64,000 nucleotides of DNA from Dyadobacter sp. (GCF_017744695.1 NZ_JAGIAS010000004.1:143303-207302); one strand, 5' to 3'; counted from the first letter of the stretch, positions 7,134 to 12,575 are shown. Numbers and translations are program-made. The notes: generated by a model not told the origin, from the sequence alone.

Positions 7134-8321
7134 TTAGTCAAGAATTTCAGTTACCTGACCAGCACCTACGGTACGTCCACCTTCGCGAATCGCGAAACGA
7201 AGACCTTTTTCCATAGCGATTTTGTTGATCAGTTTCACTTCGATAGTGATGTTGTCACCTGGCATAACCATTTCAACACCGGCAGGAAGTGTGATTTCAC
7301 CTGTCACGTCAGTGGTACGGAAGTAGAACTGAGGACGGTATTTGTTAAAGAATGGAGTGTGACGTCCACCTTCTTCTTTCGACAGCACGTAAACTTCACC
7401 TTTGAAGTGTTGGTGAGGCTTAACTGAACCTGGCTTACAGATTACCATACCACGACGGATCTCTTCTTTGTCAATACCGCGAAGCAACAAACCTACGTTG
7501 TCACCAGCTTCACCGCGGTCGAGGATCTTACGGAACATCTCAACACCTGTTACAGTTGATTTGAGACCTTCTGCACCCATACCGAGGATATCAACAGGAT
7601 CACCAGAGTTGATCACACCACGCTCGATACGACCAGTTGCAACAGTACCACGACCAGTGATCGAGAATACGTCTTCAACAGGCATCAAGAAAGGAAGATC
7701 AGTCATACGTGGAGGAATTGGAATCCAAGTATCAACAGCTTCCATCAGGTCTTCGATAGTTTTAACCCACTTAGGCTCGCCGTTAAGACCACCCAAAGCA
7801 GATCCCTGGATTACAGGAATGTTATCGCCATCGAATTCGTAGAAGCTCAGAAGCTCGCGGATTTCCATCTCAACGAGTTCAAGAAGTTCCGGATCATCAA
7901 CCATGTCCACTTTGTTCATGAACACAACAAGCTGAGGAACACCTACCTGACGAGCAAGAAGGATGTGCTCACGAGTTTGTGGCATAGGACCGTCAGTAGC
8001 AGCAACCACGATGATTGCGCCGTCCATCTGAGCAGCACCAGTTACCATGTTCTTCACGTAGTCAGCGTGACCTGGGCAGTCAACGTGCGCATAGTGACGG
8101 TTGGCTGTCTGGTATTCTACGTGAGAAGTGTTGATTGTGATACCGCGCTCTTTTTCTTCAGGAGCATTGTCGATTGAAGAAAAGTCGCGTTTCTGTGCAA
8201 AACCTTTATCAGCCAACACAGTTGTAATCGCCGCTGTAAGGGTAGTTTTACCGTGGTCAACGTGCCCGATAGTACCAATATTTACGTGGGGTTTCGAGCG
8301 GTCAAACGTCTCTTTTGCCAT
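7134..8321 (-). CDS. tuf: Elongation factor Tu
   Basis: [35 protein letters not shown]; 395 aa. Confidence 0.99.
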
Positions 8322-8464
8322 GACTTAAGTACGCTTAAAATTAAAAGTTATTACGAATTTATTATACACTACTAATTGATCCTGCTGGCTTTACTGCAAT
8401 CAAACACCGCAATCGTCTACCAAACCAGGATCAAAACCAATGCAGGGACACATCCTGCTTTCTG

Positions 8465-8536
<72 letters not shown>

Positions 8537-8564
8537 ATTGTTACTTCTTTTTTCTCTCATCTTC

Positions 8565-8622
8565 CCAAGGAAGTGCTCTACCGCATCGGCGGACCGCCCT
8601 GAGCTACAAAAGCATTGTTACT
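8565..8622 (-). pseudogene. Duplicated 5' half of tRNA-Thr(GGT) with a 15-bp insertion in the D-loop
   Basis: Identical to 8503-8545 except for GCATCGGCGGACCGC inserted at 8583-8597; stops within the anticodon, no T-arm or 3' acceptor. Confidence 0.9.
8583..8597. repeat. 15-bp GC-rich micro-insertion, copy 1 (variant)
   Basis: Minus strand reads GCGGTCCGCCGATGC(GGT); the empty site is visible in the intact tRNA-Thr. Confidence 0.8.
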
Positions 8623-8646
8623 AAAAGCATTGTTCTTAGAACCAAA

Positions 8647-8692
8647 AAGCGATTAGCGAAAGTTATCTATTGAATGTTTTCGCTAATCGCTT
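8647..8692 (-). terminator. Terminator-like hairpin between tRNA-Gly and tRNA-Thr
   Basis: Perfect 15-bp stem AAGCGATTAGCGAAA / TTTCGCTAATCGCTT, followed by Ts on the minus strand. Confidence 0.6.
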
Positions 8693-8710
8693 CGATGATG
8701 CTTCTAATTG

Positions 8711-8783
8711 AGCGGAAGACGAGGTTCGAACTCGCGACCTATAGCTTGGAAGGCTATCGCTCTACCAGCTGAGCTACTTCCGC
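8711..8783 (-). tRNA. tRNA-Gly (TCC)
   Basis: Acceptor GCGGAAG/CTTCCGC, anticodon arm ATAGC-CTTCCAA-GCTAT. Confidence 0.97.
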
Positions 8784-8846
8784 ATTTGTTTTCGTCTTTA
8801 CCTCAAGAACTGGCCTTAATTGAAGCATTTTTTCAGACTCAAACTG

Positions 8847-8929
8847 TGGGGGCGGATGGATTCGAACCACCGAAGACATAAGTCAGCAGATTTACAGTCT
8901 GCCCCATTTGGCCACTCTGGTACACCCCC
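8847..8929 (-). tRNA. tRNA-Tyr (GTA)
   Basis: Acceptor GGGGGTG/CGCCCCC, anticodon arm GCAGA-CTGTAAA-TCTGC, long variable arm. Confidence 0.97.
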
Positions 8930-9030: not shown

Positions 9031-9077
9031 TAAAAAAAAATGTGGCCTGGAATCAAAAACGTCGATTCCAGGCCACA
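9031..9077 (-). terminator. Intrinsic terminator of the ECF/OMP triplet
   Basis: TGTGGCCTGGAATC / GATTCCAGGCCACA stem plus a long U-tract. Confidence 0.8.
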
Positions 9078-9093
9078 CGGGCACTTTTTTGAC

Positions 9094-10215
9094 TTAAAAC
9101 AATCTTACCCCAAAACTCAGCATCCGGACCGAAGGCCCCCGGTTGGCTTCGAAAAGATAGTTCAAATCATAGTTCACAAAGAAGTCAGGAAAGTTACGGA
9201 TACCAATTTCAGCAGCTAAACCGTAGCGCAAATCTTCGATGTAAAAGTTACGCCGGTCGTGGTCCACATCCTTCGTACCGACCTTGCGTACCTTGGTATA
9301 ACTGCCAATTCGATAACCACCGTAAGCACCCGCGCTGATGTACGATATGAATGAGTGTGAAAAACTCAGCGTAGGCATAATGGACAGGTTGACATAGGGC
9401 ACCACGAGCTTCGACTTTCTCACTTCCACCGGCTTACCCTGGTCATCGACAACTTGCCTGAACTCGACGCCGTCGTCGGTTTTGGCAATCGTATTATCGC
9501 CATCGTACATCATATTGTACCACGAAAAGTCGATGCCGAAGTCCAGATGAAGCCGGGCATCTTTTCCTTTGATCACATTGGCGCTGGCCACATAACCGAG
9601 GCTCACAAAACGCGATCCGAATGGTTTCAGGTCATAGTCCGATTTATTGAAGCCATTGGTAGCCTCATTGGTACCATAAGTATTCAATCCCAATGCGACA
9701 TTGAAACCCTTACGCGGGCTCGACCCGCCCCATGATTTTCCGTGAAACCGCTTACCGATGCGCCGGTAGGTCGAATCCGACCCGACGACGGCATCACCTT
9801 CCTTCACTTCCACGCCCGAGCCATCGATAGAAACCTTCGTGTCCCCATCCTTGATATGAATACCGCGGAGTCCAATTCTTACATAATCCTTATCGGCAGG
9901 CTGATCCGGGTTTTTCAAATACTTATTTCCGTTGAATTCCTCCCGCAGAAACGTCGTATCGGCCTGGGTACTGTCCAATCTTACTTTCAGATCTTTCAGT
10001 AATGCATTCAAATCATACTTCATGATCTTTTCCAGCTCCTGGCGGTTTTCGCCGTAAATGATTAGCCTCGTCTTATCACCGAATGTGACGATAATCGAAT
10101 CCTTATCCCGGCCGCCGGGCCATTCAAACTGATCATTGGATTTCAATGAACCAGCGCGCGCGCCAATGGCAACCAGCAGTACCAGCATTGCCATTGCATA
10201 TATTTTACTTTTCAT
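9094..10215 (-). CDS. Outer-membrane beta-barrel (porin-family) protein
   Basis: Signal peptide; C-terminal amphipathic strands ending in ...SFGVRLF; third gene of a sigma/anti-sigma/OMP triplet. Confidence 0.7.
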   Translation of the reverse strand: MKSKIYAMAMLVLLVAIGARAGSLKSNDQFEWPGGRDKDSIIVTFGDKTRLIIYGENRQELEKIMKYDLNALLKDLKVRLDSTQADTTFLREEFNGNKYLKNPDQPADKDYVRIGLRGIHIKDGDTKVSIDGSGVEVKEGDAVVGSDSTYRRIGKRFHGKSWGGSSPRKGFNVALGLNTYGTNEATNGFNKSDYDLKPFGSRFVSLGYVASANVIKGKDARLHLDFGIDFSWYNMMYDGDNTIAKTDDGVEFRQVVDDQGKPVEVRKSKLVVPYVNLSIMPTLSFSHSFISYISAGAYGGYRIGSYTKVRKVGTKDVDHDRRNFYIEDLRYGLAAEIGIRNFPDFFVNYDLNYLFEANRGPSVRMLSFGVRLF

Positions 10216-10226
10216 GGCACAAGAGA

Positions 10227-11063
10227 TTACAGTTTTGTCTTGTTTTTAGGGTGATCTTTTTCTGTACTTCTGTCTTCCTTGTTACGCAGGCGATCGTCCA
10301 CACGTGCTACAAGGTTTTTTGGATTAAATCCCACTTCATCCCAATCGACTTTCTCGCCTGCCCTCGCATTTTTGAGCTGGCGGAAAACCCTTGCAAACCG
10401 GGTATTACGTGGTTTCTCTTCCGCTTCACTAGGACCGGTCTCCACGGCAACGACAATCGTTCTTGTCGGCTCGGGCTCCGGCTTGTTTACCCGACTAACA
10501 GCTGGCTCATCGGGCAAAGTCTTAATACCCTGTGCAACAGGGATATTTGTAGATTCCGGCTGTATGGCATTCACCGGTATCTCCGGCTTTTCTGTAATTG
10601 CCACTGCCGGCGCATTCTGTATAAGTTCGGGGGTAGCGACAGGTGTCTCGATTACCTGTTTCGGAGCCTGACGCACCTCGGCTACATGGACGACTGGTTT
10701 AAGATTCCCTTGATTACTAGTAACCACTCCATTACTTTTCCCCTCCGCTGCCGCTAATTGTTCCACCGGTGCTTTTGAATTTTCAACCGGAGCAGTCATG
10801 GAATCTTTTTGAATCGGCTTGGCAGCTGCAATAGTTTGTTGCGGTTTAATACTTTCCGGCGAATTAACCTGCTGATTCTTCCAAACCAGGTAACCTCCCA
10901 TCACCGCCGCAGCCACACCGGCGGCGGCATACCAACCCCACACAGCCGGGCGACGTTTTACCGGCTGCTTTTCCTGAATTTTCAGCCACGCATTTTCCGA
11001 AGGTGTTCTTTGCGCTCCTTCGAGTTTGCGTTTGAAAAGATCATCAACAGGATGCTTTTTCAT
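10227..11063 (-). CDS. Putative anti-sigma factor module (own ATG at 11063)
   Basis: MKKHPVDDLFKRKL...W.KI N-terminus, one TM helix (WYAAAGVAAAVMGGYLVW), Pro/Ala/Glu-rich periplasmic part. Confidence 0.65.
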   Translation of the reverse strand: MKKHPVDDLFKRKLEGAQRTPSENAWLKIQEKQPVKRRPAVWGWYAAAGVAAAVMGGYLVWKNQQVNSPESIKPQQTIAAAKPIQKDSMTAPVENSKAPVEQLAAAEGKSNGVVTSNQGNLKPVVHVAEVRQAPKQVIETPVATPELIQNAPAVAITEKPEIPVNAIQPESTNIPVAQGIKTLPDEPAVSRVNKPEPEPTRTIVVAVETGPSEAEEKPRNTRFARVFRQLKNARAGEKVDWDEVGFNPKNLVARVDDRLRNKEDRSTEKDHPKNKTKL

Positions 11064-11633
11064 AGTCTTTTTTTTTTTATAATCATTCTGCCATTCCGCG
11101 ACCATTTTCTGCAACAATGCCCGGGCGCGGTGCAACTGTGATTTCGACGTACTTTCGGTAATGCCCAGCATTTGGGCTATTTCAATGTGTGCGTAGCCTT
11201 CGATGGCGTAGAGGTTAAAAACCGTCCGGTAACCTACCGGCAGCGCTTCGATCAATGCCATTAGCTCTTCGGTTTCCAGGTTTTGGTCAGCGTGGGTGTA
11301 ATCGGGAATGTTGTTAGCCTCATCCGAAAGGTTATCCTCCAGAATCCGCTTTTGTTTCCTCAGATAGCCCAGCGATTCGTTCACCATGATCCGCCTGATC
11401 CACCCTTCGAAACTTCCTTCGCTATTGAATTGATCTATTTTTTCAAATACCCTTAAAAAACCCTCTACCATCACATCCTCGGCCGCCATTTCATCGCATA
11501 CATAGCGGAAGCACAAAGCCAGCATCCGATGGCTGTACTTGTCGTAAAGCTGTCGCTGCGCCTTCGGATCTTCCTTCCTGAGAGCTTTGACGAGCTGTGC
11601 TTCCTGGCTAAATAGTGCTAAAATTCGACCCAT
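10227..11633 (-). CDS. ECF sigma-70 factor fused in-frame, through an A11 tract, to the downstream membrane anti-sigma-like protein
   Basis: Region 2 (AEDVMVEGFLRVF, FEGWIRRIMVNESL) and region 4 (LPVGYRTVFNLYAIEGYAHIEIAQMLGITESTSKSQLHRAR), then ...NDYKKKKT-MKKHPVDDLF with no stop; likely start ATG 11633. Confidence 0.85.
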   Translation of the reverse strand: MGRILALFSQEAQLVKALRKEDPKAQRQLYDKYSHRMLALCFRYVCDEMAAEDVMVEGFLRVFEKIDQFNSEGSFEGWIRRIMVNESLGYLRKQKRILEDNLSDEANNIPDYTHADQNLETEELMALIEALPVGYRTVFNLYAIEGYAHIEIAQMLGITESTSKSQLHRARALLQKMVAEWQNDYKKKKTMKKHPVDDLFKRKLEGAQRTPSENAWLKIQEKQPVKRRPAVWGWYAAAGVAAAVMGGYLVWKNQQVNSPESIKPQQTIAAAKPIQKDSMTAPVENSKAPVEQLAAAEGKSNGVVTSNQGNLKPVVHVAEVRQAPKQVIETPVATPELIQNAPAVAITEKPEIPVNAIQPESTNIPVAQGIKTLPDEPAVSRVNKPEPEPTRTIVVAVETGPSEAEEKPRNTRFARVFRQLKNARAGEKVDWDEVGFNPKNLVARVDDRLRNKEDRSTEKDHPKNKTKL

Positions 11634-11657
11634 TCTAATTGGTGGTTTCGACAGCAA

Positions 11658-11685
11658 GATGCGCATTCCTCTGCGTGAGGTTGCA
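11658..11685 (-). promoter_or_regulatory. ECF-type promoter upstream of the ECF sigma (autoregulatory candidate)
   Basis: TGCAAC-N16-CGCATC. Confidence 0.5.
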
Positions 11686-11765
11686 TGTGCCGGAAAAGTT
11701 TTTTGATATTATTTTTAGCTTTGATGCGAATATCACTCATTGATCACCAAAAGGACTTTTCTTCA

Positions 11766-12575
11766 ATGCTCGACTCCTCTGCGCCCATCGGAATTTTTGA
11801 CAGCGGAATCGGCGGTATGACCGTCGCCAGTGCTGTAACCCGGTTGCTTCCCCAGGAAAACACCATTTATTTCGGCGACACGGCGCATTTGCCTTACGGC
11901 GATAAATCCACAGCTGCCATTCAGGCGTATTCGATCAAAATCTGCAATATGCTCTTGCAGCAAAACTGCAAGCTGATCCTCATCGCCTGTAACTCCGCGT
12001 CCGCGGCCGCCTACGAGCTCGTACGCGAGTATGTAGGAAGCAAAGCGAAAGTCCTGAATGTGATCGATCCGGTGGTGGATTATGTGAAAGAGCATTATGA
12101 AGGGAAAACCATCGGCCTGATCGGTACCAAGCAGACCGTCCTCTCCAATGTATATAAAAAAAAGGTGGACGCGCTCGACAGGAATATTCACCTGAAATCA
12201 CTGGCTACCCCATTACTTGCCCCGATGATCGAGGAAGGTTTTTTTGATAATAATATCAGTGAAAGCGTAATTGCCAATTACCTCTCCGATCCATCTCTGA
12301 ATGGCATTGAGGCATTAATCCTCGGTTGCACGCACTATCCGTTAATCAAAACACAGATCCGAAAATTCTATGGCGATACCGTGGAGACGCTCGACACCTC
12401 CGAAATCGTCGCGCGTTCTCTGAAAGCCTGGCTCGAACAACATTACCTCATCAATGAGAAAGGCGAAGGCAAGCGGCAATTCTATGTGTCGGATTACACG
12501 TTGTCATTTGAGCAATCCACCAACATATTCTTCGGCCGGCAAATCCAGCTCGAACATTACCCGCTCTGGGAATAA
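11766..12575 (+). CDS. murI: Glutamate racemase
   Basis: IGIFDSGIGG, YFGDTAHLPYGDK, IACNSAS, LGCTHYP; start ATG 11766, with TAGCTTTG -7 element at 11716-11723. Confidence 0.97.
   Translation: MLDSSAPIGIFDSGIGGMTVASAVTRLLPQENTIYFGDTAHLPYGDKSTAAIQAYSIKICNMLLQQNCKLILIACNSASAAAYELVREYVGSKAKVLNVIDPVVDYVKEHYEGKTIGLIGTKQTVLSNVYKKKVDALDRNIHLKSLATPLLAPMIEEGFFDNNISESVIANYLSDPSLNGIEALILGCTHYPLIKTQIRKFYGDTVETLDTSEIVARSLKAWLEQHYLINEKGEGKRQFYVSDYTLSFEQSTNIFFGRQIQLEHYPLWE

Follow-up and report, generated by a model that had tools for sequence, protein, structure and literature searches.

In the assembled genome of a Dyadobacter strain (7.83 Mb in 17 contigs), a run of eleven adenines places an ECF sigma factor gene in one frame with the anti-sigma-like membrane protein gene that follows it, at a junction where relatives keep nine adenines and two separate, overlapping genes. 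Judged from these orthologous junctions, A11 is a derived allele that is unique to this genome. On balance we consider it probable, if far from assured, that A11 is a genuine, recent and lineage-specific allele in a tract that is now hypermutable, as opposed to an evolved switch.

The window, by which we mean the whole stretch of 64,000 nucleotides analysed, corresponds to G000:C12:143303-207302. Its minus strand reads GAT TAT, the A11 and then G ACT ATG, with the run located at 11068-11078 (G000:C12:154370-154380). A single minus-strand open reading frame of 479 aa (10227-11666) crosses the run; its product is 468 aa long (10227-11633) if translation begins at the conserved start MGRILALF (11633). 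The preliminary description had reported exactly this in-frame joining of the sigma factor to a membrane protein gene, and it is confirmed in the assembly. The same 468-aa product is present in NCBI nr from one contig only, on which a 278-aa product has also been called, hence two annotations of one assembly disagree. A genome-wide count found A11 to be the only 11-base homopolymer and the longest single-base run of the genome, in which homopolymers of at least nine bases number only 33 and A/T runs of length 9 and 10 number 26 and 5, respectively. As the genome's sole 11-base run, placed at the very site where relatives keep an A9, it is more than a chance feature.

From its sequence, the fused frame is predicted to consist of an N-terminal ECF sigma factor followed by a single-pass, anti-sigma-like membrane protein. 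Pfam models place Sigma70_r2 at residues 40-107 and Sigma70_r4_2 at residues 133-185 of the fused chain, with the remainder devoid of any match. The sigma part (11064-11633, minus strand; 190 codons from MGRILALF) scores 55 bits with PF04542, 56 bits with PF08281 and 100 bits with TIGR02937 (cut-off 43). It contains regions 2 and 4 only, within the approximately 190-200 aa typical of ECF (group 4) sigma-70 factors, and its orthologues in the protein database are stand-alone proteins, nearly all of 196 aa. The partner (10227-11063, minus strand; 278 aa) has its own ATG at 11063-11061. An alignment of the partner family reveals a conserved N-terminus of 45 aa, one predicted transmembrane helix, a variable linker that is probably disordered, and a conserved C-terminal module of approximately 70 aa; the hydrophobic segment itself is conserved as WxWYAAA...GGYLVW. 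An AF2 model of the partner contains helices at residues 5-17, 23-32 and 40-66 and renders the conserved N-terminus as two short helices, with a mean pLDDT of only 54 and a pTM of 0.18 marking the model as low confidence.

The preliminary description had designated the partner an anti-sigma factor, and this stands in part. The partner gene directly follows the sigma gene and is translationally linked to it, with an overlap of 20 nt at the orthologous junctions (59 distinct junctions, described below). NF052375 matches the partner below threshold (21 bits against a cut-off of 100, E=2e-4), with a similarly weak match in 23 of 31 homologues. The partner sequence gave no Pfam match at E values up to 10 and no relative in the PDB, and no recognised anti-sigma domain (ZAS or any other curated model above its cut-off) was found in it. 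Position, overlap, predicted topology, the sub-threshold HMM match and the design of paralogous pairs thus point to an anti-sigma-like protein, while assignment to a curated anti-sigma family is not borne out. In the closest paralogous ECF sigma genes of this genome, the downstream ATG lies 8-14 nt before the sigma stop (ATGAAA......TGA). These paralogues, for example C16:318792-319398, C10:609008-609590 (reverse-strand index) and C10:980627-981299, carry only A4-A5 upstream and no A9.

The C-terminal module of the partner (residues ~200-278, window positions 10227-10460, minus strand; EPTRTIVVAVE ... FRQLKNARAGE.VDW.EVGFNPK.LVARVDD) is highly conserved, and no relative was found for it in Pfam, NCBIfam or the PDB. 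It may be the part that communicates with the protein encoded downstream, an outer-membrane beta-barrel protein of 373 aa (9094-10215, minus strand; OMP_b-brl_2, 28.1 bits against a cut-off of 27). A strong intrinsic terminator (9031-9078, minus strand), made up of a 17-bp stem and an adjoining T9 run (C12:152334-152342), closes the transcription unit, and the sigma, partner and barrel genes thus form a three-gene operon. At 7134-8929 (minus strand), downstream of the operon, genes for tRNA-Tyr, tRNA-Gly and tRNA-Thr are followed by tuf (EF-Tu, 395 aa); upstream, a glutamate-racemase-like gene occupies 11685-12575 on the other strand.

The equivalent junction was read at 48 congener loci, at 20 loci in the family's other genera and at 66 loci from a pattern scan (one genome per species); together these amount to 59 distinct orthologous junctions. 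Of these, 54 have an A9 tract, four an A10 and one an A7, and the spacer between tract and ATG measures 7 nt in 57/59 and 8 nt in 2/59, the usual form being A9 GTAGACT ATG. A9 junctions occur in Dyadobacter, Telluribacter, Rhabdobacter, Arundinibacter, Persicitalea and uncultured Cytophagales, and the 59 junctions cover at least six named genera. With the A9 GTAGACT arrangement, the sigma factor ends in KKKVDYEKASC-TGA, the stop (11044-11046 in the window, minus strand) lying 17 nt past the first base of the partner ATG, which leaves the two genes overlapping by 20 nt. Such an overlapping pair is kept in approximately 200 relatives. The partner frame is closed by TAG, TAA or TGA between tract and ATG in 53/59 junctions and the third frame stops at ATGA, with the result that all three frames of the relatives stop within ~20 nt. 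A slip into the partner frame would therefore end the sigma factor at once and cannot fuse the genes, and closure of the fusion frame in 53/59 junctions indicates a family built to prevent fusion. We also considered whether loss of one A by slippage would create the fusion in relatives; this is wrong for most, as GTAGA or GTAAA places TAG or TAA in that frame. The A7 junction was read at one congener locus (L037; G069:C1, ~3494338-3494847), where the sigma tail reads KKSRL and the genes meet in an ATGA overlap; this is a single-contig assembly, only 95% complete, and the A7 may reflect a homopolymer undercalled in long reads or else a genuine further variant in length.

No homologue spanning both halves was found among 216 protein matches, every one being confined to the partner (59% of the query) or to the sigma factor, and no fusion was detected in 146 family genomes or in 58 congeners. 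The open frame around the sigma match measures 183-270 aa in the 146 family genomes, as it does in the 58 congeners, and reaches 493 aa only here. A metagenome scan for any allele of the form A7+ ... GACTATG returned three matches, all A9GTAGACT, and the A11 allele was not found among them.

These observations bear directly on the slippage switch that had been suggested, in which slipped-strand changes in tract length would toggle between free and membrane-tethered sigma factor as adaptive bet-hedging. Runs of 10-12 As are unstable by nature, the set of products makes sense at any of these three lengths, and fused sigma/anti-sigma proteins can work, as IutY demonstrates (PMC5411451). However, the comparison of tract length across orthologues, which the preliminary description had itself proposed, reveals a tract that is A9 in 54/59 distinct junctions across at least six genera and not a variable one; the fusion frame is stopped in 53/59 relatives, no fused homologue exists among those searched, and the allele occurs in one genome only across the 216 homologues, 146 family genomes and metagenome scan. 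We therefore regard an evolved phase-variable switch as very unlikely. The locus displays neither the conserved fusion of a hybrid family nor the variable tract of a contingency locus, and we class it as a slippery junction, conserved in the family, at which this lineage carries a homopolymer allele of its own or the assembly an artefact.

Comparison with the relatives also shows how the A11 differs from its counterparts. The 12 bases A9 and GTA of these junctions correspond to eleven As in the window, and both G and T are gone. This replacement of GTA by AA leaves the site one base shorter, removes the TAG stop of the fusion frame and places sigma factor and partner in one frame. With both G and T lost, a simple homopolymer miscount of A9GTA cannot explain the site, which has really diverged. 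Possible routes from A9GTA include a GT deletion leading to A10, two substitutions leading to A12, and a G deletion leading to A9-TAG, and each of the three passes through an intact two-gene state. Read in the window, A10 gives two genes with a sigma tail of KKKRL-TGA and an ATGA overlap, the TGA of which (11060-11062, minus strand) only this version would use, whereas A12 restores two genes together with the ancestral sigma tail. The arithmetic given for A10 in the preliminary description is thus correct, but its use as the reference two-gene state does not hold: according to the orthologous sequences, the ancestral junction combines A9+GTA with genes that overlap by 20 nt, as opposed to A10 with ATGA.

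The exact count of eleven nevertheless deserves scrutiny, as it is possible, if less probable than a genuine allele, that the true tract is A10 or A12, that the strain has two ordinary genes, and that the fusion exists only in the deposited consensus. A11 is the longest homopolymer in 7.83 Mb and the site of the genome most prone to error. Two genes are the rule in all relatives, and here a tract one base shorter or longer (A10 or A12) would leave both genes intact. The sigma part carries no lineage-unique amino-acid change in 186 residues when compared with nine close relatives, and the partner has kept all family-invariant residues in the alignment; this lack of decay is a pattern that a miscounted functional locus would also display. 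In addition, the second annotation of the contig calls the 278-aa protein alone, and the A7 of the G069 assembly at the same site indicates that counts at this tract differ between assemblies.

Weighing against a miscount, no other homopolymer-linked frame break was found among the 402 runs of at least eight bases in the assembly. Approximately 99 of these runs fall within long open frames and leave them intact, examples being an A10 (frame of 657 aa) and a T9 (frame of 977 aa), and the junction-like run candidates, when read out, all proved to be ordinary gene junctions with normal starts of their own. The assembly contains N-runs of 10, 97 and 98 as well as contigs of 556-605 bases, and has a completeness of 99.98%. 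The N-runs and small contigs suggest scaffolded short reads, for which a consensus error at 11 bases is uncommon. Finally, the accompanying loss of G and T is a real change, and the site has mutated whatever the exact count.

If the A11 is real, several products can be expected. Translation from the sigma start would yield the 468-aa hybrid, in which a single membrane span would hold the sigma factor on its cytoplasmic side. The internal ATG retains an A-rich leader (-15 to -5), so that free partner should still be made. In Citrobacter rodentium, the A11 run of tssM1 gives rise to mRNAs with 10-15 As (PMC4256274). Similar slippage of RNA polymerase on the A11 here would supply a fraction of free sigma factor and hence a mixture of fused and free forms, with A12 transcripts encoding the ancestral sigma tail (KKKKDYEKASC) and A10 transcripts encoding KKKRL with the ATGA overlap. 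The A11 allele also creates an in-frame A_AAA_AAG -1 slippery heptamer, and a -1 ribosomal slip at this position would lead to the same ancestral tail, reaching the TGA at 11044-11046. As regards programmed -1 frameshifting, the heptamer is found without a conserved downstream RNA structure (28 sequences). ARAGORN identified 38 tRNA genes, with a single tRNA-Lys of anticodon UUU (C1:19751-19824); tRNA-Lys(CUU) was not found by ARAGORN in this draft assembly, which may miss tRNA genes. Should tRNA-Lys(CUU) indeed be lacking, AAG codons following A runs would be slippery. Ribosomes are also known to slide on runs of AAA Lys codons. The expected outcome of the A11 is thus a mixture of forms and not a clean on/off state.

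Another reading takes A11 as a null allele heading towards a pseudogene, with the sigma factor tethered and inhibited in cis following loss of selection on its regulon in this lineage. Homopolymer frameshifts are the commonest route of bacterial gene inactivation, but the sigma factor is without excess amino-acid change, the partner and barrel genes are intact, and slippage on an A11 should still supply some free sigma (PMC4256274). We judge this reading to be very unlikely.

Single-polypeptide sigma/anti-sigma hybrids are documented, as the preliminary description had correctly stated (PMC5411451, PMC8999054). In IutY from Pseudomonas putida (ECF243), a sigma/anti-sigma hybrid is activated by Prc and RseP (PMC5411451, PMC8999054). 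The fused frame resembles IutY in its predicted layout, a single polypeptide that begins with an ECF sigma domain, crosses the membrane once and ends in a periplasmic part, and IutY demonstrates that a hybrid of this sort can function as a regulator activated by proteolysis. However, IutY is an established cell-surface-signalling protein of the FecI/FecR type, whereas the fusion described here occurs in a single assembly, stems from a one-base frame change and has orthologues that are two genes, and its partner lacks a FecR or any other Pfam domain. The actinobacterial ECF48, ECF52 and ECF53 groups, for example SCO4117, likewise continue at the C-terminus into a membrane helix and an extracytoplasmic region, extensions that proteolysis presumably removes (PMC8999054). 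Their extensions contain a zinc-finger anti-sigma domain and are conserved across the groups, neither of which holds here. The tssM1 gene shares with our locus an A11 in coding DNA where two frames meet. For tssM1, transcripts of several lengths and two coexisting products have been reported, and both products as well as their ratio were shown to be needed (PMC4256274), whereas the conserved state of the present family is an A9 with all frames closed.

The mucA22 allele of Pseudomonas aeruginosa likewise differs by one base in a short homopolymer, and there too an ECF sigma module is rewired in a particular lineage; in mucA22, however, the anti-sigma factor is truncated and the sigma factor freed, whereas here the change ties the sigma factor to its partner. 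If real, the A11 would provide a natural test of whether a two-gene sigma/anti-sigma pair tolerates conversion to one tethered polypeptide, and would show how far transcriptional slippage on 11 As rescues separate products in Bacteroidota. If a miscount, nr contains a 468-aa 'fusion protein' that arose through annotation of an error and should not be cited as evidence for sigma/anti-sigma hybrids in this phylum.

The A9 kept by the relatives is itself under constraint. The lysine codons K186-188 are AAA in 26/26 distinct congener sigma genes, whereas other conserved Lys columns of these genes mix AAA and AAG (3/21, 10/16, 8/18 and 13/11). Within long frames genome-wide, KKK is spelled AAAAAAAAA in only 3/272 cases, against ~24% expected, with AAA accounting for 62% of Lys codons. 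Selection against slippery runs in coding DNA has been described previously and agrees with the avoidance of KKK runs seen here (PMC1088944). The invariant AAA codons, taken together with genome-wide run avoidance, argue that the A9 tract is held by selection at the nucleotide level.

The location of the tract suggests a role in initiation. In relatives, the A9 comprises the last Lys codons of the sigma gene and spans -16 to -8 of the partner ATG, with a further A at -3. The motif has been tested in Flavobacterium johnsoniae, where initiation is stimulated by adenines at -14 to -11 (above all -12 and -13), -3 and -6 (PMC6847099). In the present genome, too, the A content upstream of 2,991 starts is raised at -14 to -11, to 40-43% compared with ~30%. 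We propose that the A9 could act as an unusually strong A-rich initiation element for an overlapping partner start that lacks a Shine-Dalgarno sequence; it would be tolerated in coding DNA as the three frames stop within ~20 nt, rendering slippage at the extreme 3' end harmless. The arrangement shares adenines at -14 to -11 and at -3 with the A-rich initiation regions of Bacteroidota (PMC6847099), the tract covering the motif, although ordinary genes contain runs of 2-4 As, which the conserved A9 inside an upstream coding sequence far exceeds. No conserved RNA structure was found at the junction (28 sequences gave a consensus fold of only -2.8 kcal/mol without covarying pairs), which fits an open initiation region. 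Upstream of the 2,991 starts, A runs of at least nine occur in none and a run of eight in only two; with no ordinary start carrying such a run, the reading as an initiation element may be incomplete. The conserved A9, of a kind otherwise avoided in coding DNA, nonetheless offers a clean natural case in which to study how Bacteroidota select internal starts.

A further proposal assigns the conserved A9 a function in slippage and coupling, whereby slips of RNA polymerase or of the ribosome would shift the sigma stop relative to the partner ATG and so set the sigma-to-partner ratio, with the A11 variant adding a tethered hybrid, so that free and membrane-bound sigma factor would be expressed heterogeneously from a single locus. 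In line with transcriptional slippage, an A run of at least nine is conserved here at the nucleotide level. A conserved extended product in an alternative frame was not found, the relatives' frames stopping within ~20 nt and the fusion frame being closed in 53/59, and we consider this function unlikely. A second A9 occurs at a gene junction of the same genome (G000:C9:10781-10789), where a 176-aa frame ends in GKKKGNDMGRLAIHSYG-stop after the run and the next frame, MTWEDWRS, starts inside it. This suggests that the sigma operon is not alone in having an A9 run at an overlapping start.
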